Part shown: piece after piece, positions 1 through 41,969 of the stretch | How the letters are laid out: the number at the start of each line of letters is the position of its first letter | Position numbering within the stretch: position 1 is the stretch's first letter | Assembly (NCBI GenBank): GCA_016699305.1 | Contig: CP064970.1 | Coordinates: 1,034,066 to 1,098,065, forward strand | Length of the DNA stretch: 64,000 nucleotides | Direction: 5' to 3' | Source: Alphaproteobacteria bacterium | GTDB lineage: Bacteria > Pseudomonadota > Alphaproteobacteria > GCA-016699305 | The notes under the pieces: model-generated | The model's database searches: none | What the model saw: only the letters and a program-made list of their open reading frames with translations | Told to the model about the DNA's origin: nothing | Made by a program: the position numbers and the translations under genes

Positions 1-1628
1 CGAGCCTTGGCCTTTTCCTTGCGAGGCGTGGGGATGTCCACTTGCTCTTCCTCGGCCAAGGGGAGGTTTTGGACGTTGAGGCTGTAGTCGTCGTGGCCCC
101 ATTCGCATTTGGTAAGAACGGCACGGGGGATTTTACGGAGGGTTAGGTTTTCAAACGCATCCGCTTTGCCTCGGAAGGCGGAACAGCAAATAAGAAGACT
201 GCGCTTGTCGCCCACTTCTTCGGACAAGGCGGCGAGCTGCGCCTGATCCAGCGTTTGCGTTGTCACATAGATGAAGTCGGTCTCGGTTGAATGGCCTTGC
301 TGCCAATAGATTGTCTCGGACGGCGCATAGGTAAAGCCCATCAGCTTGCACATCGCCTGTGTCAGCATGGCGGGATCATAGTCTTTGTTGATGACCGCTT
401 GGCCGTATTTGTCCATCGAGATAAGCGATGGAGCCAACGCGTAATAGCGGAATCCACCGCCGCCCTTCCAACCCACAGCTTCGGTTATGCCGCCCTTGTC
501 TTCGCCATCGATCACCTTTTTGAGGCGCGGAATGATATGCGTATGGCAATGCTCGCCGAGTTCGATCATGATCCACCGCCGCCCCATTTTGTGAGCAACC
601 GCGCCCGTCGTGCCAGAACCAGCGAAGGAATCGAGGACGAGATCACCCGGATTGGTGGCCAAGAGAAGAATCTTTTGCAGAAGCCTCTCTGGTTTTGGTG
701 TCCCAAATAGGTCGGTAACTTTTACGTCAGGAAATAGGTTCTTTAGCTCGTATTTTGCCTGTCTGTTGTGACCTGTTTCTTCAAGGTCAGTCCATAAGGT
801 TGAAGGAGGGAGCCCCTCCATATCTGCGAGATAAGTGCGACGAATAAGGCGTGTATAGTCAGGCGAATAGCGAATCTCACCGGTTTTCATTTTCTCTTCA
901 ATCGTTTCACGCGACCAACGCCATCCATTGGGCGGATGCTTGATCTTATTTCCTTTCGGGGTAACAATATCGAACTGCAAATTGGTTCTTAGTCCGGGAT
1001 TGTTTACTGGGTTTCCATCAAACCATGCTCCCCTTGGATCATTGTCTGGATTCTTAAAATGTTTTCTCTTATTCATATCGTTTAGAAATTTGGGCGACCA
1101 ATCCGGCTCTTTTGCATAGATGAGAACATCATTGTGATCGAGAGAGAATTTCGTGACATTATTGTTGCTGTTGTCAGAGGTGCGCCAAACAACGTCTGAA
1201 ATAAAACAAGAACGCCCAAACACCTCGTCGCAAAGCACCTTGAGATAGTGGCATTCGTTGTCGTCGATGGTGATCCAGATTGAGCCGTCTTCGGAGAGAA
1301 GGTTGCGCAGGATTTCAAGACGATCGCGCATGAGGCCGAGCCAGATGGAATGTTCCAACCCGTCATCGTAATGAGTGAAAGCCGAGCCGGTGTTATAGGG
1401 CGGATCGATAAAGACGCATTTGACCTTCCCCGCATATTCCTGCTCCAACGCCTTAAGCGCGAGCAGATTGTCGCCAAAGATCAGCTTATTGTCGAACAAA
1501 TCATGATCCGTAACGCGCTTCTCCGCGTGATACGACTTTGTATCATCCTCCAACAAAATCCGAGGCTCCAACCGAGGCCTCTGATCCTTCCCAATCCACG
1601 TCAGTTCCAGCTTTTGCTTTTTTGTCAT
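1..1628 (-). CDS. Beta-class N6-adenine/N4-cytosine DNA methyltransferase (type III Mod-like, N6_N4_Mtase type), 3' end beyond window
   Basis: A manual reverse-complement translation from the ATG at 1628 is open all the way to position 1. Motif IV (VKCVFIDPPYNTG) lies near the N-terminus. The AdoMet-binding motif I (LVLDSFAGSGTTGAVA) lies about 250 aa downstream, which is the beta-class motif order. The track ORF at 1082..1477 is in a different frame and is spurious. The true ORF is absent from the track only because its stop lies outside the window. Confidence 0.85.
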   Translation of the reverse strand, partial: MTKKQKLELTWIGKDQRPRLEPRILLEDDTKSYHAEKRVTDHDLFDNKLIFGDNLLALKALEQEYAGKVKCVFIDPPYNTGSAFTHYDDGLEHSIWLGLMRDRLEILRNLLSEDGSIWITIDDNECHYLKVLCDEVFGRSCFISDVVWRTSDNSNNNVTKFSLDHNDVLIYAKEPDWSPKFLNDMNKRKHFKNPDNDPRGAWFDGNPVNNPGLRTNLQFDIVTPKGNKIKHPPNGWRWSRETIEEKMKTGEIRYSPDYTRLIRRTYLADMEGLPPSTLWTDLEETGHNRQAKYELKNLFPDVKVTDLFGTPKPERLLQKILLLATNPGDLVLDSFAGSGTTGAVAHKMGRRWIMIELGEHCHTHIIPRLKKVIDGEDKGGITEAVGWKGGGGFRYYALAPSLISMDKYGQAVINKDYDPAMLTQAMCKLMGFTYAPSETIYWQQGHSTETDFIYVTTQTLDQAQLAALSEEVGDKRSLLICCSAFRGKADAFENLTLRKIPRAVLTKCEWGHDDYSLNVQNLPLAEEEQVDIPTPRKEKAKA

Positions 1629-1653
1629 TGTTCACTTTTTCCAGATTATAGGG

Positions 1654-2652
1654 TTAGGTTGACAGCCAAATAACAATCAATCCTGCAATAACAGCCACAA
1701 CAATTTCTCCGATCCATGAGCATAGTAACGACCATGTGCGGATAATCCAAATGGGTTTAGCAATTTTCGTTGCTACGGAGGTATTAGCGGTAGGTTGGCA
1801 AGGAGGTTCTACCGAGACGCATTGATCGATTGCGGGAAGATCAAGGGATAGGGTTCTCAACCAAGCTACAAACTCTTTTGGTTTTACGCGGCTGGCGTAA
1901 AAGGACTTGATGCGTTCTTCCTCAGCAGCTTTCTGATCGCAATCGAACAGGTGATCGTTAAAGTCGTGCAGTTTCAAGTCTTGTGTACGCTGTGCATCTA
2001 GGATATAGCCCATCAGTCGCTTAACGCGGGGCTTATATCGCAAGAAAGCAATCTTCTTTTCTTCTTTCGTATTGCTTTGATGCCCGAGGACATAAAGCAA
2101 AGCATCCGTCATTTTCCAAAGGGGCTCGGTTATCCGCTGTACAAATGTTTTTTGATCTATCGCAGGAAAATTCAGATTCTCTTCTTTTCGAGAGTGTTGA
2201 GACAGACCGTAGTATTGGATTTGATTTTCTAGTTCGTCATATATCTGCTTAGGAATTTGTATGCCGGTTCGTTCAGCCCAGATAAGAAAGCTTACCGTAT
2301 AAAATTCTGGGGTCTTCTCCTTGTCTTGCTCAAAGGATTCAAAGTCGTAGTCCTTCACATATGCCTCGATTTCGCCTTTCTCTGCGGCCTTTAACGCACC
2401 GGCGAAACAATCCGCAGACTGCTTGTCTTGTCGAATAATCTCTTCTAACTTCTGGAGACCCACTGCCGTCTCACAGTACCTATAAAACAAATCGTTAAGT
2501 TGTTTTGACCTGTGCGCATCGTCGTCAAATTCAAGATGGAGGTACAAAACCAGCGCGGGCAAAGGCAGATGGTCGGGAACGGGAATTTTTCCCGCGCCCT
2601 CTGAAAGAAACCTTTCGATCATTAATTCTCTCATCCCTTCACTTCCCATGTG
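1654..2652 (-). CDS. Hypothetical protein with a C-terminal transmembrane helix (tail-anchored), AT-rich
   Basis: The track ORF is 1654..2712. The likely start is the ATG at 2652 (MSGHMGSEG...). The C-terminus, WIGEIVVAVIAGLIVIWLST, is hydrophobic. The gene is distinctly lower in GC than its neighbours. I recognise no conserved catalytic motif. Confidence 0.55.
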   Translation of the reverse strand, partial: HMGSEGMRELMIERFLSEGAGKIPVPDHLPLPALVLYLHLEFDDDAHRSKQLNDLFYRYCETAVGLQKLEEIIRQDKQSADCFAGALKAAEKGEIEAYVKDYDFESFEQDKEKTPEFYTVSFLIWAERTGIQIPKQIYDELENQIQYYGLSQHSRKEENLNFPAIDQKTFVQRITEPLWKMTDALLYVLGHQSNTKEEKKIAFLRYKPRVKRLMGYILDAQRTQDLKLHDFNDHLFDCDQKAAEEERIKSFYASRVKPKEFVAWLRTLSLDLPAIDQCVSVEPPCQPTANTSVATKIAKPIWIIRTWSLLCSWIGEIVVAVIAGLIVIWLST

Positions 2653-2749
2653 TCCGCTCATTATTCTCCAGCAAAATCCGAAGTTCCAACCGAAGTTCCC
2701 GATCCTTCCCAATCCACGTCAATTCCAGTTTTTGCTTTTTATTAGTCAT
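2639..2749 (-). pseudogene. Diverged duplicate of the methyltransferase 5' end (encodes MTNKKQKLELTWIGKDRELRLELRILLENNERTHGK)
   Basis: The DNA is about 80% identical over roughly 90 bp to the start of the methylase gene at 1540-1628. The peptide is near-identical to the methylase N-terminus, MTKKQKLELTWIGKDQRPRLEPRILLEDD. It overlaps the start of the 352-aa gene in another frame. Confidence 0.6.
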
Positions 2750-3482
2750 TTTTTTGATGATCCAAGTTTTCTGATGGGTAGAGAAGAATGCGAAAATCCC
2801 TGTCGATATTTTTGAAAGCATCTCTCATAGCGGCATATCTTATTTCGTATTCCTGATTATAGGATTTGGCTGGTAGATCTGTTTTTCCCCCTTCACCCAA
2901 CCAAGCATAAACTAAACTCATTGTCTCGATTAAACCCTCTATCGACGACCTTAGCTTATCTCCAATAAATATTTTGTTTGATGTGTAATTTTCATAAAAA
3001 GAGAGCAAGGGTGTTTTGGCATCTTGATGCGCCTTTTCAAGCTTCAGTTTTTGATAGGCATGAAATCTATAACTATATTCCACATTTCTGACTCTGGCCT
3101 TCTCCTCTTCTGAGAATGCTGCCTGTGCCAAAAACTCATTCAATCGTTCTAATGAAACATCCGTGCAATTCTCAATAGGTTTCAGTTGGAGGGTGCGATA
3201 ATAGATTTCTTCGAGCTTGCGCTGCGCCATTGAGAGATCGTTCCAAAGCTTCGGAAGCATGCCGAATTCAATGTCATGAAGTTTTGATAACCGATTAAAG
3301 GTAGAATCTATACGAAGATTGAATTTGCTTTGTTGTTCCTGAAATTTTGCATCAAGCCCCATTTTCCCTAGAACCAAACAAACAAAAATGACAAACACAA
3401 GAATTAGAACAACATAAATGCCATATCTCTGAATTTCTTGATTTATAAAGATTTGAATTATTGGATTAAGCGTCTCCGTCAT
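2742..3482 (-). CDS. Hypothetical protein with an N-terminal transmembrane helix, AT-rich
   Basis: The protein starts MTETLNPIIQIF. A GGAGG ribosome-binding site lies 5 nt upstream. The ATG overlaps the helicase TGA as ATGA. The transmembrane segment is YGIYVVLILVFVIFVCLVLG, followed by a helical soluble part. Confidence 0.6.
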   Translation of the reverse strand: MTETLNPIIQIFINQEIQRYGIYVVLILVFVIFVCLVLGKMGLDAKFQEQQSKFNLRIDSTFNRLSKLHDIEFGMLPKLWNDLSMAQRKLEEIYYRTLQLKPIENCTDVSLERLNEFLAQAAFSEEEKARVRNVEYSYRFHAYQKLKLEKAHQDAKTPLLSFYENYTSNKIFIGDKLRSSIEGLIETMSLVYAWLGEGGKTDLPAKSYNQEYEIRYAAMRDAFKNIDRDFRILLYPSENLDHQKND

Positions 3483-6451
3483 AATAGCCTCCATTCCACA
3501 CAAAACAGCGGCGTCACTTCGTGCCTGCTGTCCTGCAGTTGCCGTTCTAATTGATTAATAAGCTCTTCGCGCCTTGCGTCAATTTTATCTTGGCTCGTGA
3601 AAAGTTCATGTCGTTTTTGGGAGCGGCGTTTTTCGAAGGCGGCTTTTTGTTTTTGGAACGCCAATTTTTCCGCCAAACTAATCAATTGCTTAGATTGACG
3701 GTCGGCCTCGCGGATGTCTCGGTCGAGCTGCTTCAGTTCAATCTCAAGACCGGTCTTCAAGTCCTCGGCCCAACGGTCGAGCTTGTCGAGTTCCTCTTCA
3801 AAATAGCGGTGATTGCTCACTTCCGATTCGTTTAGGAGGGCTGCGACACGCACTGAACGATCAGCTTCCGCCGCATTCTGGTGTGGACAGGTGGAAAATT
3901 CTCCCTCGACCGAGGCCGAAAGCAGGAAGAGCTTCTCGCCAAATTCCTGCGGCAGGATTGCGCCGGTTTCGTCGCAAGTGATGAAGATCAGGGTTTCGGT
4001 TTCTTCGAAGGTTTTGATCGTCAGCTTGTCGAGCCAGAGCCATCCCTGTTTGCCGCGCTGCTCTTCCAGCAACGCAATCTTGTGCGGATAGGAGGAAAGG
4101 TCAAAAAGCAATGTTGCCGAAGGCGTCTCAAGCTCACGCCCCTTTTGAATAACGCGCTCCCCCATAAGATCGGACATGCGATAGGGATACCCCGTCACCG
4201 GAACCTTGGAGGAACCGCGCTTCGGCGTTGCAAGAGGATCGACCGGCTCGGCGGCCTTGGTTTCCAGATAATGATAAATGGGCGTGCGGTCACCATCGCT
4301 TGGCCTTTTCCCACGCGCGATGAAGGCGGCATCGTCGCCGAAGATCAGCTTTTCATCGTTGAAGAAGAACATCCCGTCATAGATGAATTTCGTCAGCTCC
4401 CAGAAATGATGCGTGACGGTGTCGATGCGCTTTTTTGTCGCCTCCATGCTGAACTTCAGATGTTTGGTCACGTCCTCGTCGAAATGCTCGAACAGCATGG
4501 TGCGCGTTTCGGCGATACGGCTTTGGATTGGCTCTTCCATTTCGGATTGAAGTTGCGTGAAGGCTCGTTCAATCTCTTCCGGCCTGCGGCAGGTTTCAAA
4601 AATCTCCAGCACGCGCTTTTCAAAGTCTATGCCGGACTCAACGCGGCCAAGAACCTCATCCGAAGCACCGAAAACGCCGTCGAAAAGCTGAAACTTCTCT
4701 TTTAGCAATTCATAGATGCGCTGATCGGCCAGATTGTCTTTGTTCAGAAAGTTGATGACGACCACATCGTGCTTCTGGCCGTAACGATGGCAACGGCCAA
4801 TGCGTTGCTCGATGCGCTGCGGATTCCAAGGCAGGTCGTAATTGACGATGAGTGAGCAGAACTGGAGATTGATGCCCTCGGCGGCGGCTTCGGTGGCAAT
4901 CATCACCTCGGCATGGTCACGGAAGAAATCGACCAAAGCCATGCGCATATCGACGTTTTTCGATCCCGTAATGCGGCCTGTCTCGGCGTTTTTGTCGAGC
5001 CAAAACGCATAAATGTCTTTGGCAAGATCGTCCGTGTTCTGGCCGTTGAAGGTCACGATTTTGCCGCGATACCCGTTGTCTTCCAGATACTCTTTCAAAT
5101 AACGCTGCGTGCGGCTGGATTCCGTGAAGACAAGAGCTTTGCGCGCACCACCAAGTTCCCCCATGCGAGCGAAGCCGGTTTGCAGCGATGTTAAGAGAGC
5201 CTTGGCTTTGGTTTCTATCTTGATCGAACGTGCTAGGGCTTCGAAACTGTTGATCTGCTCAATCTCGTAATTCAGTTTTTCGATGTCGATGTCTTTATGC
5301 TTGGGTGGGGCGGCTCGTTCTTCTTCCTCGCCATCCTCGGCATATTCGATGTCAATGTCCTGATCGGCTATAAACGCGCCACGCAGGTTCAGTTTTTCTT
5401 CCTTGCGGGTCTCGCGCATTTTCTCAAGGCGTGCTTTGATCGTTTTCAGCGTACCGACAAGCGCGAAGGACGATGAAGCGAGAAGTTTGCGGATGATGAG
5501 GACGACCAGTTTTCTTTGAGCCCACGGAATGGCGTAGGTATCTTGCTGGAGGAGAAAATCGGAAACTTCGTCGTAGAGCCTTTGTTCCTCGACAGATAGT
5601 CTGAACGGCTGTGTTATCGCTTCGCGGCGTGTGTAACGGATATATTCCAAAACCTGCCGCCGTAATGTGCGTTGAACAAACGGTGCGAGACGGGATTTCA
5701 GGTCGTCAATGTTGGGATTGCCGTTGACATACGCCGTTTTGAACGTGTCGATCCCGCCAAAAATCCGGTCGTCGATCAGCGAGGCAAGGCCGTAAAGCTC
5801 CATGAGCGAGTTTTGAAGGGGCGTTGCTGTTAAAAGCACCTTTTTATGATCCGCCAAGGCCGCCTGAATATTGCGGCCCATTTTATTGTCTTTCTTGAAC
5901 AGGTTTCGAAGCTTGTGGGCTTCGTCGATCACCACCAGATGCCACGGCATAGCCTTCATCTGCTCGGCATAGCGATTGGCGAATTGATAGGAAACGATGA
6001 CAACACCCGCAAAATCGAAGGGATCGCCATTTTGGCAACGCTCCGCATAATTGCTGCTTTCCAGTACAAGCGTGGGGAGGTTGAACTTTTCTTCCAGCTC
6101 AATCGACCATTGGCGGCGCAGGACGGCGGGACAAATGACGATGAGTCGCCGCTTATGTTCGGCCCATAGCTGGCAAAGCAAGATGCCGGCCTCAATGGTT
6201 TTGCCGAGGCCGACTTCGTCCGCCAGCATGACCCCCTTGGATAGGGGGGATCGAAGCGCAAAAAGCGCGGCCTCAATCTGGTGCGGATTAAGGTCTACGG
6301 CGGCGTCAAAAAGCGAAGTTGTAAGGCGATCAACAACCGCCGAGGCTTTCTTGGTCGAAATCTCGTGCGCAAAATACTTGGCGTGATAAGGGGTTAGGAC
6401 TGCTTTCGAGCACCTATTTTCTGCCCCAGATTGTTCTTCGTGTGCTCTCAT
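3479..6451 (-). CDS. SNF2-family (SF2) helicase/ATPase, 990 aa
   Basis: Motif I is LADEVGLGKT. Motif II is VVIDEAHKLRN. The SNF2 signature is LLTATPLQNSLMELYGL. Motif VI is QRIGRCHRYGQ. The C-terminal region has a long coiled-coil-like extension. Confidence 0.9.
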   Translation of the reverse strand: MRAHEEQSGAENRCSKAVLTPYHAKYFAHEISTKKASAVVDRLTTSLFDAAVDLNPHQIEAALFALRSPLSKGVMLADEVGLGKTIEAGILLCQLWAEHKRRLIVICPAVLRRQWSIELEEKFNLPTLVLESSNYAERCQNGDPFDFAGVVIVSYQFANRYAEQMKAMPWHLVVIDEAHKLRNLFKKDNKMGRNIQAALADHKKVLLTATPLQNSLMELYGLASLIDDRIFGGIDTFKTAYVNGNPNIDDLKSRLAPFVQRTLRRQVLEYIRYTRREAITQPFRLSVEEQRLYDEVSDFLLQQDTYAIPWAQRKLVVLIIRKLLASSSFALVGTLKTIKARLEKMRETRKEEKLNLRGAFIADQDIDIEYAEDGEEEERAAPPKHKDIDIEKLNYEIEQINSFEALARSIKIETKAKALLTSLQTGFARMGELGGARKALVFTESSRTQRYLKEYLEDNGYRGKIVTFNGQNTDDLAKDIYAFWLDKNAETGRITGSKNVDMRMALVDFFRDHAEVMIATEAAAEGINLQFCSLIVNYDLPWNPQRIEQRIGRCHRYGQKHDVVVINFLNKDNLADQRIYELLKEKFQLFDGVFGASDEVLGRVESGIDFEKRVLEIFETCRRPEEIERAFTQLQSEMEEPIQSRIAETRTMLFEHFDEDVTKHLKFSMEATKKRIDTVTHHFWELTKFIYDGMFFFNDEKLIFGDDAAFIARGKRPSDGDRTPIYHYLETKAAEPVDPLATPKRGSSKVPVTGYPYRMSDLMGERVIQKGRELETPSATLLFDLSSYPHKIALLEEQRGKQGWLWLDKLTIKTFEETETLIFITCDETGAILPQEFGEKLFLLSASVEGEFSTCPHQNAAEADRSVRVAALLNESEVSNHRYFEEELDKLDRWAEDLKTGLEIELKQLDRDIREADRQSKQLISLAEKLAFQKQKAAFEKRRSQKRHELFTSQDKIDARREELINQLERQLQDSRHEVTPLFCVEWRLL

Positions 6452-6570: not shown

Positions 6571-7002
6571 TCAATCCACCTGTTGTGCCGTCAGGAACAT
6601 TGCCTTTTCAAGGGCGGCGAAAAACTGCTGATAGGGCTGCGGATCCTCGATGGCAGTGATGTTGTACTGGGCGTTGGCGCGGACGATAGTCTGGGGCGTG
6701 CCGCGATCACGGACGCTGACGGTCATGCGCATGGCGTAACCGTTTAATTTTGTTCCACTTACTGTGCCGAGAGTGGCGTCGGCCTTGTCGATCACAAAGC
6801 CCAGATCTTGAAGCGTGGCGATGATGGTGCGCAGGGTCTTGGCCTTGTCGGTCGTGTCGAAGGCCCGGCTTTGCATGCTGCGCAGCGCCACTTGGCTTTC
6901 GGAGGTCTGAAGAACCTGATTACGGCTGTCTGTCTGGCATGCGGTCAGAAGCAAAAGGACCATAAAGGGAACTGCTACGGTCTTGATCGGATGGCGGGAC
7001 AT
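6571..7002 (-). CDS. Lipoprotein (signal peptide, lipobox LLTAC)
   Basis: The N-terminus is MSRHPIKTVAVPFMVLLLLTAC. It is a paralogue of the next gene: both share an LQDLGF motif and a C-terminal YQ(Q/E)FF..L....FLTA motif. Confidence 0.6.
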   Translation of the reverse strand: MSRHPIKTVAVPFMVLLLLTACQTDSRNQVLQTSESQVALRSMQSRAFDTTDKAKTLRTIIATLQDLGFVIDKADATLGTVSGTKLNGYAMRMTVSVRDRGTPQTIVRANAQYNITAIEDPQPYQQFFAALEKAMFLTAQQVD

Positions 7003-7026
7003 TGGCTTTCCTTTTGTTTCAATGCG

Positions 7027-7608
7027 TTAGATTTCGTTGGCCGTCAGGAAGACCGACTGCGAGAGCTTGTCGAAGAACTCCTGGTACAGCTTGGGATCGT
7101 TAAGCGGCTCAGTCGTTGAGACTTGCCCCTGATTGTTCCAAACCACGCGCTGGAAGGTCACACGCGCGGCGGTTTCCTTGTCGGCCACGGGGCGGGTGAT
7201 CAGGCTGACGCGTATTTTCTGCTTCTCGTCATAGATCACGGGCGTGCCGATCATGACCCTCAAGAATATGACGGCGGCGACCTGTCCGGCCTCGGTGGCA
7301 TCCCGATCTTTCGAGCCGACGACCACACCAAGGCCCGTTTCGCTTTCCTCAAGATTGAAGCCCAAATCCTGTAAAACCTGCGCGCCGGCCGACAGGAGCT
7401 TCTTTTCATCCTTGGTCTCGAACCGGCGGGTTTGGGATTGGCGCTGCTGGAGGCTTTCCTGCGTCAACTCCAGTGCCTCCTTGGGCACCGTTTGGGCACA
7501 GGCGGACAGGGACAGCAAAACAACAAGACAGAGGGCAAGTTTGCGCATCATGGCCCCCTTAAAAGCTGGAGGAGCGATAGGCGTAATCACGCACTTTGCC
7601 CGCTTCAT
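7027..7608 (-). CDS. Lipoprotein, paralogue of the 6571..7002 gene (lipobox LSAC)
   Basis: The signal peptide is MMRKLALCLVVLLSLSAC. The true start is probably the internal Met near 7551. Confidence 0.6.
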   Translation of the reverse strand: MKRAKCVITPIAPPAFKGAMMRKLALCLVVLLSLSACAQTVPKEALELTQESLQQRQSQTRRFETKDEKKLLSAGAQVLQDLGFNLEESETGLGVVVGSKDRDATEAGQVAAVIFLRVMIGTPVIYDEKQKIRVSLITRPVADKETAARVTFQRVVWNNQGQVSTTEPLNDPKLYQEFFDKLSQSVFLTANEI

Positions 7609-8008
7609 CGAATTTCACGATAATGGTGAGTGTCCGTTGGGTCGTGCTGGAAGCGCCCGAACCGCTGCTCATACCGCCGCCAAGGCCGCCCAGCAGCCCC
7701 GCGCCGCCCGTTGCGCCAGCTCCGCCAAACACCAGCCCGAGGCCGCCGGAGGACGTGGAATAGACCTTTTCGGTCGAAATCTTGTCATAGACCCAGCTTT
7801 CCCGGCGGTTTTCATCGGTCGTCACCATGTTCGGGGATCCCAGTACCTCGACGACTTCTGCCGACGTCATGCCCTTGTGAAGCTCCCGCTGGGCGGCAGC
7901 GACCGTCAGGCGGCCCTTGTCTTGGTTGGAAACGTCAGCGCGGTGATCTTGGGCGGAAGCGCAGGCTGCCAATGGCAGGAGTAAGGCGCATAGCAAAACT
8001 TTGTTCAT
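7559..8008 (-). CDS. Small lipoprotein with a BamE/SmpA-OmlA-like fold and a glycine-zipper segment
   Basis: The lipobox is LPLAAC. The segment LTVAAAQRELHKGMTSAEVVEVLGSPNMV resembles the SmpA/OmlA fold. A Gly-rich stretch (GGLGLVFGGAGATGGAGLLGGLGGG) follows. Confidence 0.5.
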   Translation of the reverse strand: MNKVLLCALLLPLAACASAQDHRADVSNQDKGRLTVAAAQRELHKGMTSAEVVEVLGSPNMVTTDENRRESWVYDKISTEKVYSTSSGGLGLVFGGAGATGGAGLLGGLGGGMSSGSGASSTTQRTLTIIVKFDEAGKVRDYAYRSSSF

Positions 8009-8145: not shown

Positions 8146-9135
8146 ATGCGATTTGAAAAAGCCGAAGACTTGCTGAACCTTGCCTTTGCCATGCAATCGA
8201 GCGCCGATGGCGTTTCGCTGGCCGACATTGAGCAGATGTTCGAGGTTTCGCGCCGGACAGCCATGCGCATGTGGGACGCCGTGGTGCGGGTTTATCCGCA
8301 GACGGAGGAGAAGACCGATGCCTGCCGTATCAAGCGCTGGCGCATTCCTTCTGCGACAAATGGGCGACATTTGGCCCTGACGCCCGACGAACTGGCGACC
8401 CTCGACATGGCCGCCAAGGCCTTTAACGGGCGCGGGCTGCGCCTTCAGGCCAAAGCACTGCGCTCCCTGTGCGGCAAGATCAAAAGTTTTCAGAAGTGCG
8501 AAGCATCACGCCGGATTGAGCCAGACCTTGAGGCTTTGATTGAGGCCGAAGGCCTAGCTGCACGTCCAGGCCCGCGGCCCAAGATCAAGGTCGAGCATCT
8601 TCATGCCCTACGCGAAGCGATCAAGGCCTGCCAGATCGTCGAGATTCTCTATCGTGGCAAGGGAAAGAAAGAGGCTGAGGTCAAACGGGTTGCACCTTAT
8701 GGGTTCCTCTACGGCCACCGGCATTATCTCGTCGGCGGCGGCACGGAGAAGGGGCGCGAAACCTCTCGCTACCACTTCATCCTTTCGCAGATCGAAGATG
8801 TCACCATCACAAAGCAGGGCTTCCGCCGCGATCCTGCCTTCAACATTCAAAGCTATGCCGAGGAATCCTTTGGCATCTGGAAGGAAAAGCCTGTCGAAGT
8901 CGTTTGGAAATTCACGCCGCGCGCCGCTGAGGCCGCCCGTGATTTCGTGTTCCATCCAAGCCAAAAAATCAGCGAAGGCAAAGACGGCTCCATGACCGTT
9001 CGCTTCAAGGCAGGCGGCATGCTGGAAATGGCTTGGCATCTCTATATGTGGGGCGATCAGGTCGAAGTCGTCAAACCCGCCGCGCTGCGCAAAATGGTAA
9101 ACAGTCACGCGCGGAAGTGGGAAGGCTTGCCCTAG
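8146..9135 (+). CDS. HTH-WYL-WCX transcriptional regulator (BrxR/CapW/YafY-like)
   Basis: The start ATG is at 8146, with a GGAAG ribosome-binding site. The N-terminus is a wHTH (SLADIEQMFEVSRRTAMRMWDAV). The central region resembles a WYL domain (RYHFILSQIEDVTI). The C-terminal extension is about 100 aa. The 5' part of the track ORF is antisense junk. Confidence 0.7.
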   Translation: MRFEKAEDLLNLAFAMQSSADGVSLADIEQMFEVSRRTAMRMWDAVVRVYPQTEEKTDACRIKRWRIPSATNGRHLALTPDELATLDMAAKAFNGRGLRLQAKALRSLCGKIKSFQKCEASRRIEPDLEALIEAEGLAARPGPRPKIKVEHLHALREAIKACQIVEILYRGKGKKEAEVKRVAPYGFLYGHRHYLVGGGTEKGRETSRYHFILSQIEDVTITKQGFRRDPAFNIQSYAEESFGIWKEKPVEVVWKFTPRAAEAARDFVFHPSQKISEGKDGSMTVRFKAGGMLEMAWHLYMWGDQVEVVKPAALRKMVNSHARKWEGLP

Positions 9136-9156
9136 GTGATCGTAAACGAGGTTTAA

Positions 9157-10062
9157 ATGTGTAACGCCTATAATCATCCATCATACTGTACCTGTGGTTG
9201 GGGTGGATGGACTTCTTTTGCCCGCCCATCAGATAAGGCCGGCAACGCCGCTGTAAATTTTTGGCGGTCTGCGTGGTCTTCGGGCCGGTTGGCAAGATAC
9301 GAAACTTACACATGCCCCAATTACACTTGCTGGATATGCGGTGCCAAGGTGTTCTTCTATCACTCTCCTTTCGGCGGGCGCGTTTTCTTTGACGAACTTG
9401 GGCCGCCTTGGCCTCGCCATGCTTGTTTCGCAAAAACCGATTCCGCTTTTATCAAAGCCCCAGAGCCATCTGGCTATATTCTTCCAAGCGCAGCCCCTGC
9501 CTTTTGTCCCGCCGCCTGGAGTCGAGACGGATGGGATCCAATCGAAATTATCTCGTCCGCTCTTAGTGACAAGAAAGAGGATCAAGATTTTTATATGCTA
9601 GAAGTGCGCCGCGTCGCTGCGGCAGAGGGAACCTTGTGTCTAGGCGCGCACCTCAAGAAAAACATTGCGCGCGATACGCCTGTTTTTCTTAGAGAAACAG
9701 ATATGATTGGCGTTTATGAAATCGATTATCTTGACGCCGAAAACCTAAACGGTTCCGGCGAGCGTCTCAAAGCCTATCAAAACGCGAATAGCGCGGCGGC
9801 TTATGAATATTGGCAGTTGGCAACCCTGGATAATGATCCCAAAGCGCAGAACTATGTCGCTATGCTTTTGCTTTTTTACACGCCTTTCAGATTTCTTAAA
9901 GGCGTTTCCGTTGATGACGCTCCGTCTATCATGGAGGCCAGATATTGGCTTGAAAAGGCAGCTAGCGGAAACGCCATTGAGGCTGTTTGTAATTTGAAAA
10001 GGCTCAATGAAAGACAAATGGAAGGGAAACCGTTCTTCCGCTCGGAATATCAGTTGGATTGA
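9157..10062 (+). CDS. Hypothetical protein: N-terminal Cys-rich (putative Zn-ribbon) region plus C-terminal Sel1/TPR-like repeats
   Basis: Cysteine clusters are C-x9-C-x-C and CPNYTCWICGAK...RHAC. The C-terminal repeats have the AAYEYWQLA...YWLEKAASGNAIEA pattern. The gene starts 22 bp after the WYL regulator stop, so it is probably co-transcribed. Confidence 0.5.
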   Translation: MCNAYNHPSYCTCGWGGWTSFARPSDKAGNAAVNFWRSAWSSGRLARYETYTCPNYTCWICGAKVFFYHSPFGGRVFFDELGPPWPRHACFAKTDSAFIKAPEPSGYILPSAAPAFCPAAWSRDGWDPIEIISSALSDKKEDQDFYMLEVRRVAAAEGTLCLGAHLKKNIARDTPVFLRETDMIGVYEIDYLDAENLNGSGERLKAYQNANSAAAYEYWQLATLDNDPKAQNYVAMLLLFYTPFRFLKGVSVDDAPSIMEARYWLEKAASGNAIEAVCNLKRLNERQMEGKPFFRSEYQLD

Positions 10063-10341
10063 GCCTGCTATGGGAGGGGCGAACAACCGCTCTTGGGCCC
10101 ACGTCATTAAGGGGTAAGGTTGATAAAAGGTTTCTCTATCGTTTTCATCCAACCGCGCCCGATCTTTTGGTCGCAATATACGGTAAACAACATCTTTATT
10201 AAGGTTCAATTCTTGCCCCTGAATTAACGCAAAGGTAAGGAAGTATGCGGCAATATCCCCTTGGGTAAGTGCGTCCTTTTGGTGAAACGGGCGGCGCTTG
10301 CCGCGTGGGGAAAACGTTTCGTTTCAAGCGATTGGGCGGGG

Positions 10342-13300
10342 ATGACCGAGGGCACCAAAACACAGCTGAACAAACCATGGTTGCTTGCGACTACGGCGCT
10401 GTGCAGCCTCGTGGTGTTTGCGGCGCAGGCGGCAACCCCCGCACCCAGAACGCTGCCGCAAGGCGGATCAGTCGTCGCCGGAAACGCAGGCATCAGCACG
10501 TCCGGCGCAAACATGACCGTGAACCAGAGCAGCAGCTCGGCGGTTATCAACTGGAACAAGTTCGACGTTGGGTCACAGGCGAAGGTGCAGTTTAATCAGC
10601 CTGACGCGTCCTCGCGCACGCTGAACCGTGTTTTGTCGAGCGACCCGTCACAGATTTACGGGCAAGTGACGGCGAACGGTCAGCTTTATTTTGTGAACCC
10701 CAACGGCGTGATCGTCGGGCAGGGGGCAAGGATCGAGGCGGGCTCCATCACCGCGACCACGATGGACATCGGCAACGATGCCTTCATGGCGGGAGCGAAT
10801 AGCTTCAGCCGAGGCTCGGCCACAGGCGAGATCGTCAACCAAGGAACGCTTGCCGCCGCGCCTAAAGGTTATGTCGCGCTGATCGGCGCAAAGGTTACAA
10901 ACAAAGGCACCATCACCGCCCCGCAAGGCCAAGTGGCTATGGCGGCAGGGGACAAGGTCACCTTGCCCGTCACAGGCAGCGGCCTGATCGGCATCGAAGT
11001 TGATGCGGCCTCTGTTCAAACGGCTATCACGAATGAAGGCACGATCACCGCGCCTGATGGCAGTGTCTATATCAAAGCCGAAACCGCCAGCAGCCTTGGT
11101 GCGCAGATTGTCAACAAGGGCACGATCACGGCCAAGAATGTGGCCATGCAATCGGCCAGTGGCAGCGTGACAACCTCGGCGGCCAGCGTAATCGCTGCTG
11201 ATAATGTAACCGCGCGCGCTAAAGTCTTGGATATTGATGGCTCTGTTCGGACCTTTGGCGATACGGCGCAAATTGGGCTTTATGCTGGGTATCTGAGCCT
11301 GCGCGGAAGTCTAGAGGCTCAAAACGCAAACGGAACCGGCGGCGCGATTGAAGCCGTCGGCACGCAAGAAACCAACCTGTTTGGTGCAAAGCTGACCGCC
11401 AGCGGCATGAATGGCGGCGGGACGATCAAGATCGGCGGAGATGCGCAGGGCAGCGGCACGTTGCAACGTTCGGCGCAGACGACGGTTGATAAAGCGACAA
11501 CACTCAAAGCCAGCGCATTGGCGACAGGCGATGGCGGGACGGTGATTGTCTGGTCGGACGGTAAGACCAGCTTCGCCGGTTCGATCGAAGCCACGTCCGC
11601 AACTGGTAAAGGCGGCAACGCCGAAGTGTCCGGTAAGGTGAAGCTCAGCTATCAAGGCTATGCCGACCTGCGGGGCGCGAGCGGGACGGCGGGCACATTG
11701 CTGCTCGATCCAACAGACTTTACGGTCGCGGCCTCAGGCGGTGACATGACCGGCGCGGCGTTGTCGGCGCAGCTCGAAGGCGCGAACGTGACGTTGCTTT
11801 CCAGTAATGGCAGCAGCGGTACAGCAGGAAATATCAATATCAACGACACGGTATCGTGGAGCTCTGCGTTCGGCCTTACGCTTAGCGCGGCTGCGGACAT
11901 CAATATCAATGCCGCGATTACGACAAGCACAGGCTTGTTGACGCTGACAACGGGCAGCGCAAGCTATAGTACTTATGTAAATGCAAACGTCACAGCGAAC
12001 AGAATCGTATCGACCTATGACACGATTCTGGTTAAGGCTGAAACAGCAACAGTCGAATTAACGGGCAGTAGTCCAGCTTTGACGATCGCGGGAACCAGCT
12101 ATACGTTGATCAACAATCTCTCTAGCTGCAACTCAATGACATTGTCAGGAGCTTATGCTCTCAACGCCAATATCGGAACAGCAACGGTTCCGATTGGATC
12201 CAGCGCAACGCCTTTTACCGGAAAGATCAATGGCCTTGGCCACACGGTTACAGTCAACATAACGGCCAGCGGCGATAATACAGGTTTGTTTGGATATGCT
12301 TCGCTTGCCTCGATCAAGAATATAGGTGTGAGCGGCAGCGTGTCGGCGACAACGACAAGTTACACGGGTGCTCTTGTCGGGTATAGTGTGAATAGTACGA
12401 TTTTGAACAGCTGGTCGACGGCAACCGTTCACGGGCAGAATTACGTTGGCGGGCTTGTCGGCCAGAACACGGCCAATACCAGTAAAACCGCGTCAATCAT
12501 CATGAGCTATGCCAAGGGCGCGGTGACGTCAGAAACGGGCAGCTATTATGTTGGCGGGTTGGTCGGCGAAAATCTGGGAACAGCCAGCGGCAGCAGTGCT
12601 GTTGTAACATCAAGCTACGCCATCGGAGCCGTCACGGGCACAAACTATGTAGGCGGCTTGATCGGTTATAATTACAGCAATACCAGTGGTACGGCACCAA
12701 TTACATCCAGCTATGCGACAGGGAATGTTACTGCTGACTATTATGCCGGTGGTCTTATCGGCTATAACTATGGGCAGTCCAGCGGTAACGCTTCGATCAA
12801 TTCCAGCTATGCGACAGGGGCGGTCGGCAGTGCCGCAGCGCAATATGCCGGCGGTCTTATCGGGTGGAATAATACAAACAACGGTACGGCTTCGATCGAG
12901 CTTAGCTATGCGACGGGCGCGGTGCAGGGGGCGTATTATCTTGGCGGTCTTGTCGGGTATAATTATGGGAATAGCAGCGGTACGGCTTCGATCGCGAATA
13001 GCTATGCAACGGGTTCCGTCACAGGCGATGCTGGCGGACAGGCAACAGGCGGTCTTGTCGGCTGGAATAAAATCAACAGCGGTACTGCGCCGATAACGGC
13101 CAGTTATGCCGTCGGCGCGGTTAGTGGCGGGACCTATGTAGGCGGATTGACGGGCTTGAATAGTGGCACGGTGACCAGCAGCTATTGGGACACGCAAACA
13201 ACAGGACAGGCGACAAGCACAAGCGGTACAGGCATGACAACGGCCCAGCTTAAGTCAGCTTTGCCGTCGGGATTTAGTGCGGCCGTTTGGCGTATATCCG

Positions 13301-15798
13301 CCGGAACATCCTATCCTGACTTGTTGTGGAAAGGGATTCCGCAACAAGTGATTTCCGGTACGATCGGCAGCGTGCTTGCAGGGCAAACGATCCAGCTTGT
13401 CCTGAATGGTGCGGTTCTGGGGTCGGCACTAACAAACGCAAGCGGCGCGTTTACAATTAGCGTCAGTTCGGGCGCGGTTGGAGCCGGATCGTCCGTATTG
13501 CTCTATGCCGATAACAGCAGCTTTACTGGAACATATGTGGGTGTCGGGACAGGCGGCGATATGACGGGGCTGGCGCTTGGTTCAGGCGGGGTGAAGGTGA
13601 CGGGCGCTGCGGCGACGGCGCTGGACGTGACGGCTTTGATGAAAAGCGCGGTTGGCGGTTTGACGGATAGTGATATTCTTTATACGACGGCAAGCTCCAG
13701 TGTCACGGTTGGTGGCAACTTGGCGGTGACGGCATTTGGCGTGGTCAGCCAGACAGATGCCTTGATTGTATCGGGAACGACCAGCGTTTCCGCGACGGGC
13801 TCTGCTCTGGCTTTCACGAACGCGGCGAACAGTCTGACCGGAACGGTAAGCGTTGCGGCAGCACAGTCTATTTCGATCACGAACAATCGCGCGACCTCTT
13901 TGGGCGCAATAACGGCCAGCGGCGATATCCTTGTTCGCGCGAACGGATCGATTGCGATCGAGAGTGGATCGGTTCTGACGTCGAGTGCTGGCGGAATTGA
14001 TCTTGTGGCTTCCGGCGATCATTTCATAAATAACGGAACAGGTGCGGCGTTGTCCGCAGCGACAAGCTGGCATATCTATACGGCAAGCCCGACGGGCAAT
14101 ACGCTTGATGGTTTGAGTTATAATTACAGTCAATATGGCGCTTCTTATGGCGACACGTTGCTTGGAACCGGAAACGGTCTGATTTATGCGTCCAGTTTGG
14201 CCACAACGCAGGTTAGTGTAACGGGGGCAATAAGCAAGGTTTATGACGCGGCGGACACTGCGACAGTCGGGCTTGCAGACGTTGCTCTGACGACGACGGG
14301 GTTGAGCGGGGCGACTTATACTTACTCGGTTGGCGCGGCCTCGTATGACAGCAAAAATGTAGGAACGGGCAAAACGGTTACAGCGGCGGTTACGCTGACG
14401 GGAATTACAGAGGCGACCGGACAGGCCGTGTACGGATTTACATCCAGCCTGTCAGGTAGTGGCGCGGTTGGTGAGATCACAGCCAAAACCCTGACTGTGA
14501 CTGGCACAACGGTTTCTGGCAAGGTATATAACGGCGACACGGTGGCGACGGTGAATGTCGGCAGTGCGGCGCTGGCTGGGGTTGTCGGCGTGGATGCGGT
14601 GAGCCTCGGGACGGGCAGTGCGGTTGGGGCGTTTGCGGATAAGAATGTTGGAACGGGCAAGAGCGTCACAGCTAGCGGGTTCACCATCACGGGCACGGAT
14701 GCGGGGAACTATACGCTGGCCCAGCCGACGGGGCTGAGCGCGGACGTCACAGCGAAGACAATCACCGTAACGGGCGTGATGGCTGCTACAAAAACCTATG
14801 ACACGACCGCGGCGGCGAGCCTGAATGTGGGAAGCGCGACCTTATCCGGCGTCTATGGGAGCGATGTTGTGGGGCTGGATGCGTCTGGTGCGAGTGGGGT
14901 GTTTGCGGATAAAAATGTAGGCACAGGAAAAGGCGTTACAGTTACGGCTTTGGCTTTGAATGGGGCGGATGCCGGCAATTATGTGTTGACGCAGCCCACC
15001 GGCGTTCAAGGCACGATTAACAAAGCAAACCTAACGGTCACGGGCGTAACGGCAGGCGACAAAGTCTATGACGGATCCTTGGCAACCAGCGTGGATGCGA
15101 CGGGGGCCGTCTTGTCAGGTGTTTTGGGCACGGACGCGGTTTCCTTGATTACGATCGGCGCAAGCGCGGCGTTTGCCGATAAGAATGCGGGAACGAACAA
15201 GAGCGTCAATGTCTATGGCCTGGCGTTAACGGGCGTAGATGCCGCGAATTACGATGTCGCGACCATCGGCGTTGTTGCAGATATTTCGCGTAAGGACCTA
15301 ACCTATCAAGTGGCGAATGCCACGACGAATAAGGGTCAGATTCAGCTGGGGGCCGTCACCTTTTCCGGGTTGGTTGGGGGAGACTCGGTTGGTGCTGTTA
15401 GTGAACTGGTCGATGCAGGTGGAAATGTTGTTTCGGTCAGCGCGTCTATACCGGCTGGGACCTATACGCAACGCGTGGCTTCGCTGACGGGGGGGCATGC
15501 TGCAAATTACCATTTGCAACAGACCGGAAGCACGTTTGGAACGCTTGTTGTTGGTCATGCCGTACATTCGGTCTCAGACGAAAAGCTCAACATGATGAAT
15601 CTTTTGGGCATGTGGTATGATAAAGAACGTAAAACACAAGAGAAACCGTATGACCTGCAAGGCTTGCAGGTGCAGGAGTTCTTGTTGGAAAAAGGGCGGC
15701 AGATAGAGCTGATCCGTATCCCAAACGGGCCTAAAGGAAAGAAAATTAGAATCCAAAAGCTCGCGCAAAACACTTCCAGCCGAGCGTCTGCTCAATAA
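10342..15798 (+). CDS. Filamentous haemagglutinin-like two-partner-secretion exoprotein (TpsA) with GLUG-like and YDG/MBG-like repeats
   Basis: The TPS domain motifs are present: NQSSSSAVINWNKFDVG, and NPNGV in QLYFVNPNGVIVGQG. A long pectate-lyase-like Gly/Thr-rich shaft follows. There are about 12 (Y)YVGGL(I/V)GxN repeats and five ~90-aa repeats of the TAKT(L/I)TVTG...KVYDG...GNY type. The track start is a TTG at 10261. The ATG at 10342 precedes an extended signal peptide. Confidence 0.85.
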   Translation: MTEGTKTQLNKPWLLATTALCSLVVFAAQAATPAPRTLPQGGSVVAGNAGISTSGANMTVNQSSSSAVINWNKFDVGSQAKVQFNQPDASSRTLNRVLSSDPSQIYGQVTANGQLYFVNPNGVIVGQGARIEAGSITATTMDIGNDAFMAGANSFSRGSATGEIVNQGTLAAAPKGYVALIGAKVTNKGTITAPQGQVAMAAGDKVTLPVTGSGLIGIEVDAASVQTAITNEGTITAPDGSVYIKAETASSLGAQIVNKGTITAKNVAMQSASGSVTTSAASVIAADNVTARAKVLDIDGSVRTFGDTAQIGLYAGYLSLRGSLEAQNANGTGGAIEAVGTQETNLFGAKLTASGMNGGGTIKIGGDAQGSGTLQRSAQTTVDKATTLKASALATGDGGTVIVWSDGKTSFAGSIEATSATGKGGNAEVSGKVKLSYQGYADLRGASGTAGTLLLDPTDFTVAASGGDMTGAALSAQLEGANVTLLSSNGSSGTAGNININDTVSWSSAFGLTLSAAADININAAITTSTGLLTLTTGSASYSTYVNANVTANRIVSTYDTILVKAETATVELTGSSPALTIAGTSYTLINNLSSCNSMTLSGAYALNANIGTATVPIGSSATPFTGKINGLGHTVTVNITASGDNTGLFGYASLASIKNIGVSGSVSATTTSYTGALVGYSVNSTILNSWSTATVHGQNYVGGLVGQNTANTSKTASIIMSYAKGAVTSETGSYYVGGLVGENLGTASGSSAVVTSSYAIGAVTGTNYVGGLIGYNYSNTSGTAPITSSYATGNVTADYYAGGLIGYNYGQSSGNASINSSYATGAVGSAAAQYAGGLIGWNNTNNGTASIELSYATGAVQGAYYLGGLVGYNYGNSSGTASIANSYATGSVTGDAGGQATGGLVGWNKINSGTAPITASYAVGAVSGGTYVGGLTGLNSGTVTSSYWDTQTTGQATSTSGTGMTTAQLKSALPSGFSAAVWRISAGTSYPDLLWKGIPQQVISGTIGSVLAGQTIQLVLNGAVLGSALTNASGAFTISVSSGAVGAGSSVLLYADNSSFTGTYVGVGTGGDMTGLALGSGGVKVTGAAATALDVTALMKSAVGGLTDSDILYTTASSSVTVGGNLAVTAFGVVSQTDALIVSGTTSVSATGSALAFTNAANSLTGTVSVAAAQSISITNNRATSLGAITASGDILVRANGSIAIESGSVLTSSAGGIDLVASGDHFINNGTGAALSAATSWHIYTASPTGNTLDGLSYNYSQYGASYGDTLLGTGNGLIYASSLATTQVSVTGAISKVYDAADTATVGLADVALTTTGLSGATYTYSVGAASYDSKNVGTGKTVTAAVTLTGITEATGQAVYGFTSSLSGSGAVGEITAKTLTVTGTTVSGKVYNGDTVATVNVGSAALAGVVGVDAVSLGTGSAVGAFADKNVGTGKSVTASGFTITGTDAGNYTLAQPTGLSADVTAKTITVTGVMAATKTYDTTAAASLNVGSATLSGVYGSDVVGLDASGASGVFADKNVGTGKGVTVTALALNGADAGNYVLTQPTGVQGTINKANLTVTGVTAGDKVYDGSLATSVDATGAVLSGVLGTDAVSLITIGASAAFADKNAGTNKSVNVYGLALTGVDAANYDVATIGVVADISRKDLTYQVANATTNKGQIQLGAVTFSGLVGGDSVGAVSELVDAGGNVVSVSASIPAGTYTQRVASLTGGHAANYHLQQTGSTFGTLVVGHAVHSVSDEKLNMMNLLGMWYDKERKTQEKPYDLQGLQVQEFLLEKGRQIELIRIPNGPKGKKIRIQKLAQNTSSRASAQ

Positions 15799-15821
15799 TA
15801 AAAGTACCGATTTTTATACTT

Positions 15822-19986: not shown

Positions 19987-20516
19987 CTCTAATCAATAAG
20001 ATAATGTGGAGCAAGTTCGCTGCCAAGTATCATCCTCTCCGCCACGCCTATCCAAAATGGATAGGCCGTTTCTGGAACGCGATTGTTCCAACCAATTCAG
20101 AAATCTTCATATATTTCAACGGCAACTGGATCAGAGATTTTGAAACGCATTCTGCATCGCGCACATTTTCCGTGAACCCAGCGTGAACAGAGAGCAGAGA
20201 TTCTCTACAGCAACTGGACTTTCAAAGAAAAGTCCAGTTGCATATCCGCCAAGCACTTACAGCGTTTTTCGTGAAAATAAATGGTAGGGGGATGAGATTC
20301 GAACATAAAGCATTCAAGTGCGTAGTTTGCACCGAAGTCCACGGATTTTCACTGGGGAAGATCGCTGACGACACCGAATTGCTCAAAACTGCAGGCCCAT
20401 TTGAAAGAAGAATCAAAACGCCACTCCGTAAATTTGGGTTTTGTGGATAGTATTGACTGTTTCACTGTATTCGGATACAGTCAGAACACGTTTAATGAAC
20501 CACAGAAGAGAAAGCT

Positions 20517-21416: not shown

Positions 21417-21556
21417 TACGAGTATCCATTCTCAAAAATACTGTTAAGTTCGAGGACGCTATGCATAAATTCATTAAATCAAGGGATTGTAAAACCGCAC
21501 GAGAGTGATTATTCTTTTTTTTATCAATAGGATAACAAGGAGCACGTTCTCCTCCA

Positions 21557-21777
21557 GTAACGTCCGAACCGCCACCCATCCAAAATGGAGGGGTGTAAGG
21601 CATGTTATCACAGCAATTTCAACAAGTTATAAGTGATTGGAAATTCTGAACCAATAAGGACATTTATCCGAATTGGATTGGATAAAAATTCCTCGAGTCT
21701 GGTTCGAAAAATATGGTTGTTAACGGTTAGAGATGCGAAAACTCTCTACGGAACCCTACTTTTCAGTAGAGAGAAGT
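21557..21777 (+). repeat. ~220-bp repeat, copy 1 (REP-like head + conserved mini-ORF MRKLSTEP.FSVERS + 8-bp-stem hairpin)
   Basis: It is about 88% identical to 24101-24321. It contains the hairpin ctctctac...gtagagag at 21742-21773. Confidence 0.7.
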
Positions 21778-27527: not shown

Positions 27528-27531
27528 GATC

Positions 27532-28275: not shown

Positions 28276-28284
28276 GGAGAAAAA

Positions 28285-41966: not shown

Positions 41967-41969
41967 CCT

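Follow-up and report, generated by a model that had tools for sequence, protein, structure and literature searches.

A 64,000-nucleotide (nt) stretch of DNA from an alphaproteobacterium (contig CP064970.1; hereafter 'the window') carries within its first 6,451 positions a gene for an SNF2/RapA-like helicase, two small genes for proteins with a membrane helix (here called p246 and p322) and most of a gene for a beta-class DNA methyltransferase. By homology, the methyltransferase is the Mod subunit of a type III restriction-modification (R-M) system whose Res subunit is encoded just outside the window. Together with the upstream helicase gene, the two subunits probably constitute a conserved three-gene unit (helicase-Mod-Res), which carries exchanged cargo genes and is a probable target of control by a WYL-domain protein. 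p246 and p322 are swappable passenger genes of this unit, not parts of a new machine.

A type III Mod-Res pair behind an SNF2 helicase gene

An earlier note, made from the letters of the window, had described a block of four minus-strand genes (an SNF2 helicase, two small membrane-helix proteins and a beta-class methyltransferase) as an unclassified defence or restriction-like module, and the block was confirmed as follows:

3479 to 6451, minus strand: SNF2/RapA-like helicase, 990 amino acids (aa), first gene of the helicase-Mod-Res triad
2742 to 3482, minus strand: p246, 246 aa from its ATG, with an N-terminal membrane helix and an all-alpha four-helix-bundle domain
2639 to 2749, minus strand: remnant of a mod 5′ end, a 36-codon open reading frame (ORF; MTNKKQKLELTWIGKDRELRLELRILLENNERTHGK, then stop) that holds a copy of an 81-nt direct repeat
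1654 to 2622, minus strand: p322, 322 aa as called on the public contig described below, with a C-terminal membrane helix
1 to 1628, minus strand: mod, type III beta-class N6-adenine methyltransferase, with 542 of its 559 codons inside the window (in-frame stretch 3 to 1628)

Homologues were found for all four genes, which are thus real conserved genes and not chance ORFs. The membrane helices that had been noticed in the two small proteins were recovered, and their lengths were revised, from 247 to 246 aa for p246 (253 aa if read from an upstream TTG) and from about 333 to 322 aa for p322 (352 aa when the longest TTG ORF is taken). In the order helicase, p246, p322 and mod, the junctions measure −4, 119 and 25 base pairs (bp), the first representing the overlap of the p246 ATG with the helicase stop.

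A public contig (L001; 19.3 kb), retrieved by exact-protein look-up, is 100% identical to the window across the shared 15,851 bp and reaches 3,416 bp past window position 1. There it carries the last 17 codons of mod, 15 bp, a gene for a 167-aa protein, 10 bp and a gene for an 885-aa protein, and it ends 170 bp after the latter. The 885-aa protein matches Pfam ResIII plus RE_endonuc and PADLOC REase_III (764.8 bits), and its motifs (TGVGKT at residue 70, DESH at 205 and PD 809...ETK 823) outline a superfamily 2 (SF2) motor followed by a C-terminal PD-(D/E)xK nuclease; its sole solved relative in PDB is the Res subunit of EcoP15I (3.8e-7). This res gene starts 530 bp beyond the end of mod and is co-oriented with it, mod coming first.

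The methyltransferase matches PADLOC MTase_III (PDLC03636) at 721.4 bits and Pfam N6_N4_Mtase at 159.6 bits, and its nearest PDB relatives are the Mod proteins of H. pylori (6k0w; 3e-56) and EcoP15I (4zcf_A; 1.5e-40). Its DPPY motif (residue 75) lies ahead of FAGSGTTG (residue 335), the beta-class order in which motif IV precedes motif I; the earlier description of a beta-class enzyme running off the window was thus correct. Because L001 shows a Res just past the window edge, the enzyme can be identified as the Mod of a classical Mod-Res pair, and the assertion that the locus holds no such pair falls; its author could not see res, which is off the window. The same note expected the rest of the system upstream of position 1: more genes do lie there, yet they are the 167-aa gene and res, not drmA/B/C, nor the DUF1998 or PLD genes that extension of the contig had been meant to reveal. 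The locus is, as supposed, a restriction/defence locus, but what had been termed 'unclassified' is mostly explained as a type III R-M system with an SNF2 helicase.

The helicase matches Pfam SNF2-rel_dom (117 bits) and Helicase_C, carries GLGKT at residue 81, DEAH at 176, TATPLQN at 208 and QRIGRCHR at 549, and finds its closest solved structure in RapA (5e-36). The domain match and the TATPLQN motif bear out its original assignment to SNF2 and not to Res.

Compared with the type III systems EcoP15I and EcoP1I, the locus has a beta-class adenine methylase homologous to the EcoP15I and H. pylori Mod proteins, a Res that joins an SF2 motor to a C-terminal PD-ExK nuclease, the order mod before res on one strand, and a Mod family with a variable central target-recognition region: between loci, otherwise near-identical ones included, the centre of Mod varies and its ends are conserved. 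Unlike them, it has a conserved SNF2/RapA-like helicase gene before mod in nearly all relatives, inserted genes in the helicase|Mod and Mod|Res gaps, and an upstream regulator that is a WYL protein here and a small helix-turn-helix (HTH) protein in enterobacteria.

Two related loci depart from the single intact mod. In L018, three full-length mod paralogues (8245-9837 on the minus strand, 14770-16356 and 19161-20750; 61-63% identical to the window Mod) surround a single res, one of them inverted upstream of the helicase and one placed after res, an arrangement that may serve specificity switching. In L014 (14389-15811), Mod is reduced to its C-terminal half, the half with DPPY being gone, beside an intact Res at 90% identity, and this system appears to be decaying.

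Conservation of the helicase-Mod-Res order

A genome survey with the helicase as query, restricted to one genome per species, returned eight alphaproteobacterial loci that reach far enough (from seven metagenome-assembled genomes (MAGs), one with two near-identical loci), and all eight carry helicase, Mod and Res on one strand. Their helicases are 64-88% and their Res proteins 66-99% identical to those of the window, and the two identities co-vary (Spearman 0.976, n=8). The order recurs in Pseudochelatococcus and Endozoicomonas, and a Nitrospirae contig stops before any res; the helicases of these three are 47-53% identical to that of the window. One MAG holds, besides its triad (L013), a second helicase copy (L012, 331-5965; 87% identical), after which come a truncated AAA-like ORF and genes resembling those for Hsp70 and for a histidine phosphatase.

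A metagenome scan, for which an alignment of 15 helicases served as query, detected at least 549 relatives. Among the 44 returned loci that offer at least 7.5 kb of downstream sequence (the informative loci), 41 have a methylase and then a Res-type gene downstream of the helicase. Full-length helicase homologues in triad loci span 38-88% identity. The order was also found on four plasmids (of Salmonella, Klebsiella, Aeromonas and Blastomonas), and the helicase gene is present in 30 of 5,426 complete E. coli genomes, the triad order being seen in the single locus that was opened. The triads come in two sub-forms: in one, Mod has about 560-630 aa and Res about 885-980 aa; in the other, the methylase has about 1,050-1,100 aa and the Res-like protein about 1,120 aa.

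No helicase relatives were found in viral contigs. The names given by PGAP to the enterobacterial homologues are generic ('SNF2-related protein' for the helicase, and likewise for Res), and no paper naming an SNF2 plus type III triad, or citing the enterobacterial protein accessions, was found in the literature searched, which, as a limited library, provides weak evidence on this point. The interest of the locus now lies in a very widespread helicase-Mod-Res triad for which that literature offered no name, in its two cassette slots and in two unannotated protein families.

Two cassette slots with exchanged cargo

In the metagenome triads, the helicase|Mod gap (slot A) is bimodal, measuring ≤150 bp in 17 loci and >600 bp (up to 5.3 kb) in 24, with none between, and the Mod|Res gap (slot B) contains cargo in 10 loci, the other 31 having none. 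The 106 ORFs found in these slots fall into 66 similarity clusters, of which 46 are singletons; across about 45 related loci, the p246 family is present in only three and p322 in the window only. Pfam annotation of 76 cargo ORFs revealed AAA_15/AAA_21, Schlafen-AlbA_2, Fic, RhuM, GmrSD, AIPR, OLD-TOPRIM, SIR2, DUF4276, HerA, Abi_C and HNH, which are the families typically embedded in R-M loci: PrrC resides in EcoprrI, and Ymh-, RloC-, RhuM- and Fic-type genes reside in type I loci (PMC3710099; PMC12707154). The same Ymh, Abi_C/AbiJ, RhuM, Fic, AAA plus DUF4276 and OLD-type ATPase families fill the triad slots in other genomes.

Turnover is evident at short distance. In L009, whose helicase and Res are 88 and 98.6% identical to those of the window, respectively, the helicase|Mod cargo consists of a Ymh-HEPN protein, a p246 homologue (69% identity) and an unrelated 234-aa protein, and the Mod|Res cargo is an unrelated 144-aa membrane protein. 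Other relatives carry between helicase and Mod an AbiJ/Abi_C protein, a DUF3800 protein, an LmuB-like ATPase, a membrane protein with a Panacea antitoxin, or MBL-fold proteins; the AbiJ, LmuB-like, Panacea and Ymh cargo occur in close relatives.

A trace of such exchange is preserved in the window itself. Directly after the p246 stop lies a copy of the mod 5′ end (repeat family D1, 81 nt; 2660-2740), 85% identical to 1542-1622, that is, to codons 3-29 of the intact mod, within a dead 36-codon ORF that begins MTNKKQKLELTWIGK. L009 and L010 have similar remnants among their cargo genes. In L015 (1401-1678), a mod 5′ fragment comes within 10 bp after a helicase 3′ fragment, about 8 kb upstream of the intact system, and the two together resemble a scar left by an earlier 'bare' helicase|mod junction. 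The window remnant suggests that a 'p322 + mod' segment recombined in behind 'helicase + p246' at the conserved mod 5′ end. Base composition differs likewise: the GC content is 0.37 in p246, 0.45 in p322 and 0.42 in the 167-aa gene, versus 0.50-0.52 in helicase, Mod and Res and 0.57-0.60 in flanking genes. The low GC content of p246 and p322, their absence from almost all related loci and the mod 5′ remnant thus mark both genes as foreign to the core. With slot A empty or filled by unrelated genes across about 45 loci, the proposal that the membrane proteins had been grafted into a helicase/methylase scaffold as components does not hold. They may still be of abortive-infection (Abi) type, as the earlier note suggested, but as passenger genes.

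The p246 and p322 protein families

p246 has a single strongly hydrophobic helix (aa 16-47). Only one close relative was found among 5.8 billion proteins, and a profile search extended the family to 479 representative clusters, nearly all of 235-250 aa, which share the N-terminal membrane helix and a conserved KxHExEFEVLPxxW motif. In the AlphaFold2 model (mean pLDDT 89.5), one long helix forms membrane segment and stalk and is accompanied by a four-helix bundle, for which the lysines directly behind the membrane segment suggest a cytoplasmic location. Scans of 40 family members returned scattered single weak matches only, and a typical member matched nothing in the phage and plasmid collections. 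The genomic context of distant members comes from two short contigs, one of which adjoins a BrnT/BrnA pair.

p322 ends in a hydrophobic helix at its extreme C terminus (aa 296-322). Its 29 homologues have in common an all-alpha N-terminal module of about 260 aa (about aa 1-265), and most of them end in a Ymh HEPN domain (PF09509) with an RNPKAH motif, Ymh being a HEPN family known from R-M operons (PMC3710099). The window protein and a homologue from another genome (P0004; 74% identity) end instead in the membrane helix. Elsewhere, p322 homologues stand beside integrases, HEPN_Swt1 or HigBA genes, or alone, and none is accompanied by a helicase or methylase. The p322 model (mean pLDDT 78.9) matches no solved fold, and no p322 relatives were found in viral contigs. 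Neither protein matched a family in Pfam, NCBIfam, PADLOC or PHROGs. The idea of a conserved p246-p322 pair was rejected, because in L002, the locus of the closest p322 homologue, the upstream gene is unrelated to p246.

p322 resembles the Abi genes of the PrrC or Ymh-HEPN kind in its position, between helicase and mod in an R-M operon, and the triads resemble the loci of such genes in harbouring unrelated, often exchanged defence or toxin genes. The likeness is partial: the host system is type III, not type I; p322 has a membrane helix in place of the HEPN (Rx4-6H) domain; and p246 and p322 have membrane anchors only, with no nuclease or known toxin domain. The 167-aa protein encoded between mod and res, outside the window, has two hydrophobic segments and exceeds the Pfam threshold for the superinfection-exclusion family SieB (PF14163; 33.1 versus 26 bits), with a match restricted to aa 27-101; unlike SieB proteins, it is encoded on the chromosome inside an R-M operon, not in a prophage immunity region.

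Comparison with known helicase-methylase systems

The best PADLOC and NCBIfam matches of the helicase are DrmD models, which favours the view that the locus belongs to class 1 DISARM, or to a related system (ARMADA, Hma/BR or MADS, for example), with its remaining genes beyond the window edge. The match to PADLOC DrmD (PDLC02619; 691.7 bits) is confined to aa 45-674, and that to NCBIfam DISARM_DrmD_b (695 bits) falls under the curated cut-off of 950. The DrmD models span the motor (aa 45-679), and the C-terminal ~310 aa of the helicase, coiled coil included, are outside them. The genes actually found off the window are the SieB-like gene and res, which refutes this view up to the end of L001, 170 bp past res, and the methylase is a type III Mod, not a PglX-like enzyme. 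We therefore regard this explanation as extremely improbable.

The candidate systems were rejected individually. For class 1 DISARM, DrmA, DrmB (DUF1998) and DrmC (PLD) were not found on L001. For the DUF499-centred, BREX-related Hma systems, no DUF499 ATPase was found in the locus and the HmaA match (197.6 bits) is well below that of DrmD; Hma/BR systems need a DUF499 (BrxC-like) ATPase with helicase and methylase (PMC12839542). For ARMADA, which needs a YprA-like helicase (ArmC) and a PglX-like methylase (ArmB) (bioRxiv 10.1101/2025.09.15.676423), the methylase is of the wrong kind and no YprA/DUF1998 protein was found. With no DrmA/B/C, DUF499 ATPase or YprA helicase present, the locus is not DISARM, Hma or ARMADA. 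For MADS, Res has no mad model and the three small proteins match no PADLOC family; among the best 25 PADLOC matches of the helicase and Mod there was no mad model, and the window has no MAD1-type HTH gene. In the model of its authors, mad6, mad7 and mad8 are mandatory for MADS, and there is no SNF2 gene (bioRxiv 10.1101/2023.03.30.534895). The largest flanking ORFs of eight related loci include no DUF1998, PLD, DrmA, YprA or DUF499 protein, and are housekeeping or other defence genes, for example Mokosh-like and GmrSD.

A point in favour of a MADS relationship is that PGAP labels as 'MAD1' the small HTH gene upstream of the homologous helicase in E. coli. The label is found before enterobacterial SNF2-Mod-Res genes in L032 (9814-10014; E. 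coli NZ_CP028166.1), L026 and L031; the NZ_CP028166.1 locus has no other PGAP-annotated gene labelled MADS, and the label could be misleading for automated system calls.

What the locus does have in common with some of these systems is an SNF2 motor. Its SNF2 domain is closest to the DrmD models and, as in class 1 DISARM, is paired with an adenine methylase, but the effector here is a type III Res and the C-terminal third of the helicase is unrelated to the DrmD models. The pairing of a RapA-like SNF2 motor with an adenine methylase is likewise shared with BREX type 3 (BrxHII-PglX), ARMADA (ArmA-ArmB) and Hma/BR, which unlike the present locus use a PglX-like methylase plus a YprA helicase, a DUF499 ATPase or PglZ. 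Such a motor with a site-specific adenine methylase recurs in methylation-based defence (bioRxiv 10.1101/2025.09.15.676423; PMC12839542).

Alternative explanations

That the helicase belongs with Mod and Res at all can be questioned, as it might be a mere neighbour in a defence island or a single-gene defence with no functional link to them. Defence genes cluster. SNF2 helicases act in several unrelated defence systems (PMC11232893; bioRxiv 10.64898/2025.12.08.692795), and some loci do have the helicase without the full pair. Chance proximity nevertheless sits poorly with an order and strand kept from 38% to 88% helicase identity, in Alpha- and Gammaproteobacteria and, as far as its contig reaches, in Nitrospirae, across a gap that is often 10-85 bp, with the tight co-variation of helicase and Res identities, and with the recurrence of the order in E. 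coli, Salmonella, Klebsiella, Aeromonas and Blastomonas replicons; a purely incidental association is hence unlikely. At the other extreme, the four genes could form a new integrated system in which both membrane proteins are obligatory effectors acting with the helicase and methylase. The tight one-strand packing, the 4-bp overlap of p246 with the helicase stop, and the p246 relatives, of which one, distant, immediately follows the L016 helicase and another, closer, is in L009, are what such a system would predict. An obligatory role is contradicted by the 17 of 41 triad loci with an empty slot A and by the unrelated genes in the others, by the confinement of p322 to this one triad and the existence of its homologues alone elsewhere, and by the GC content and the mod 5′ scar that set the small genes apart from the core and from each other; the complete Mod-Res pair, moreover, already provides an effector. 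This makes the integrated system very unlikely. Somewhat less remote, although we still think it rather unlikely, is that p246 and p322 are passengers in decay or without a role in defence, such as dead toxin or Abi remnants: p322 is without the HEPN domain of most of its homologues and has a pseudo-mod fragment beside it, and mod itself has decayed in L014. Yet both ORFs are intact, the membrane-anchored form of p322 is kept in P0004, and p246 retains its family motifs and a confidently predicted fold.

The reading that we prefer, a type III R-M system and an upstream helicase as a conserved unit with exchanged cargo, has points weighing against it as well. The full pair is missing from three of the 44 informative metagenome loci (from L063 and L112 both genes, whereas L076 has a methyltransferase and no detectable Res), and L012 is a close helicase copy without Mod or Res; the helicase can thus exist without the pair. 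Only position ties p246 and p322 to defence. The fold search with p246 returned generic helical bundles from PDB and nothing at E≤0.001 from the viral structure library, and p322 could, without the HEPN domain of its relatives, be inert. Finally, a promoter and terminator scan of the locus gave counts at chance level and was thus uninformative, so that operon structure and WYL control are argued from spacing and synteny only.

Regulator and neighbouring genes

Upstream of the helicase, the window carries the following features:

8146 to 9135, plus strand: WYL/WCX transcription regulator, divergent from the helicase operon
6571 to 8008, minus strand (that of the helicase): three small lipoprotein-like genes (143, 173/193 and 149 aa) between the WYL gene and the helicase

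The product of the WYL gene matches Pfam WYL (29 bits) and WCX (56 bits) as well as PADLOC WYL, and homologues (67-92% identity) occupy the same divergent position ahead of the helicase in L013, L015 and L019. Like the WYL regulators of the BrxR/CapW kind, it is adjacent to, and conserved with, a defence operon, and it is a probable regulator of the locus; in the enterobacterial triads, a small HTH gene is found upstream instead. In L015 (4208-7630) and L019 (2524-5934), Mokosh-like genes encoding RNase_H_2 and AAA_11/AAA_12 domains, with PADLOC matches to MkoA and MkoC, are located just beyond the WYL gene, so the regulator may sit between two defence systems.

The lipoprotein-like trio has signal-peptide- or lipobox-like N termini; its 149-aa member is weakly BamE-like, and two of the three are paralogous. 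At 0.57-0.60, its GC content is above that of the restriction genes. The trio also lies between regulator and helicase in L019, leaves a remnant in L014, and is missing from L013 and L015.

Downstream of the WYL gene, a 301-aa protein (9157-10062, plus strand) matches none of the family libraries and is without homologues in the related loci. The 1,845-aa TPS/YDG/Glug protein encoded after it (10261-15798, plus strand) is a two-partner-secretion-type exoprotein. Shifts of GC content, from 0.46-0.50 at 20000-32000 to 0.60-0.65 at 34000-42000 and 58000-64000, suggest further foreign islands.

Proposed mechanism and implications

Type III enzymes recognise short asymmetric sites, of which a Mod dimer methylates one strand; Mod-Res binds unmethylated sites, slides with ATP and cuts when two inversely oriented sites communicate. 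By comparison with these enzymes, the Mod dimer of the present system would methylate one strand of a short asymmetric site of its own, and Mod-Res would bind unmethylated incoming DNA, slide with ATP and cut between inversely oriented sites. The conservation of the SNF2 motor suggests a co-inherited accessory that assists restriction. RapA recycles RNA polymerase, and by analogy the motor could recycle complexes or rid the DNA of bound proteins or anti-restriction factors. The two gaps, helicase|Mod and Mod|Res, would be insertion hot-spots whose cassettes are swapped through recombination between conserved flanking sequences, a process to which the duplicated mod 5′ end points. As for the cargo, p246, p322 and the SieB-like protein would most likely act as an independent, Abi-like membrane back-up defence in the manner of PrrC, and may equally be inert; PrrC embedded in a type I system is the analogue for such a back-up (PMC12707154).

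A bolder reading, which we put forward tentatively and hold to be possible, takes SNF2-Mod-Res as a distinct family in which the motor is needed for restriction or changes its range and the slots, framed by conserved helicase 3′ and mod 5′ sequences, serve as a site of cassette exchange that recruits back-up effectors, p246 and p322 among them; in p322, a membrane anchor would then have been fitted to a HEPN-partner module.

Type III R-M counts as a two-gene system. Were the SNF2 motor its third partner, the question would arise of what a RapA-like remodeller adds to a sliding restriction enzyme. The motor is found in environmental Alphaproteobacteria, on E. coli chromosomes and on plasmids of Salmonella and Klebsiella, and because natural examples exist in E. 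coli the question is directly testable there. The slots, for their part, amount to a catalogue of candidate defence genes, including two unannotated families, one of them with hundreds of representative clusters. If the triad is indeed a functional unit, its SNF2 motor would link classical restriction-modification to the helicase-methylase modules of DISARM, BREX and ARMADA.

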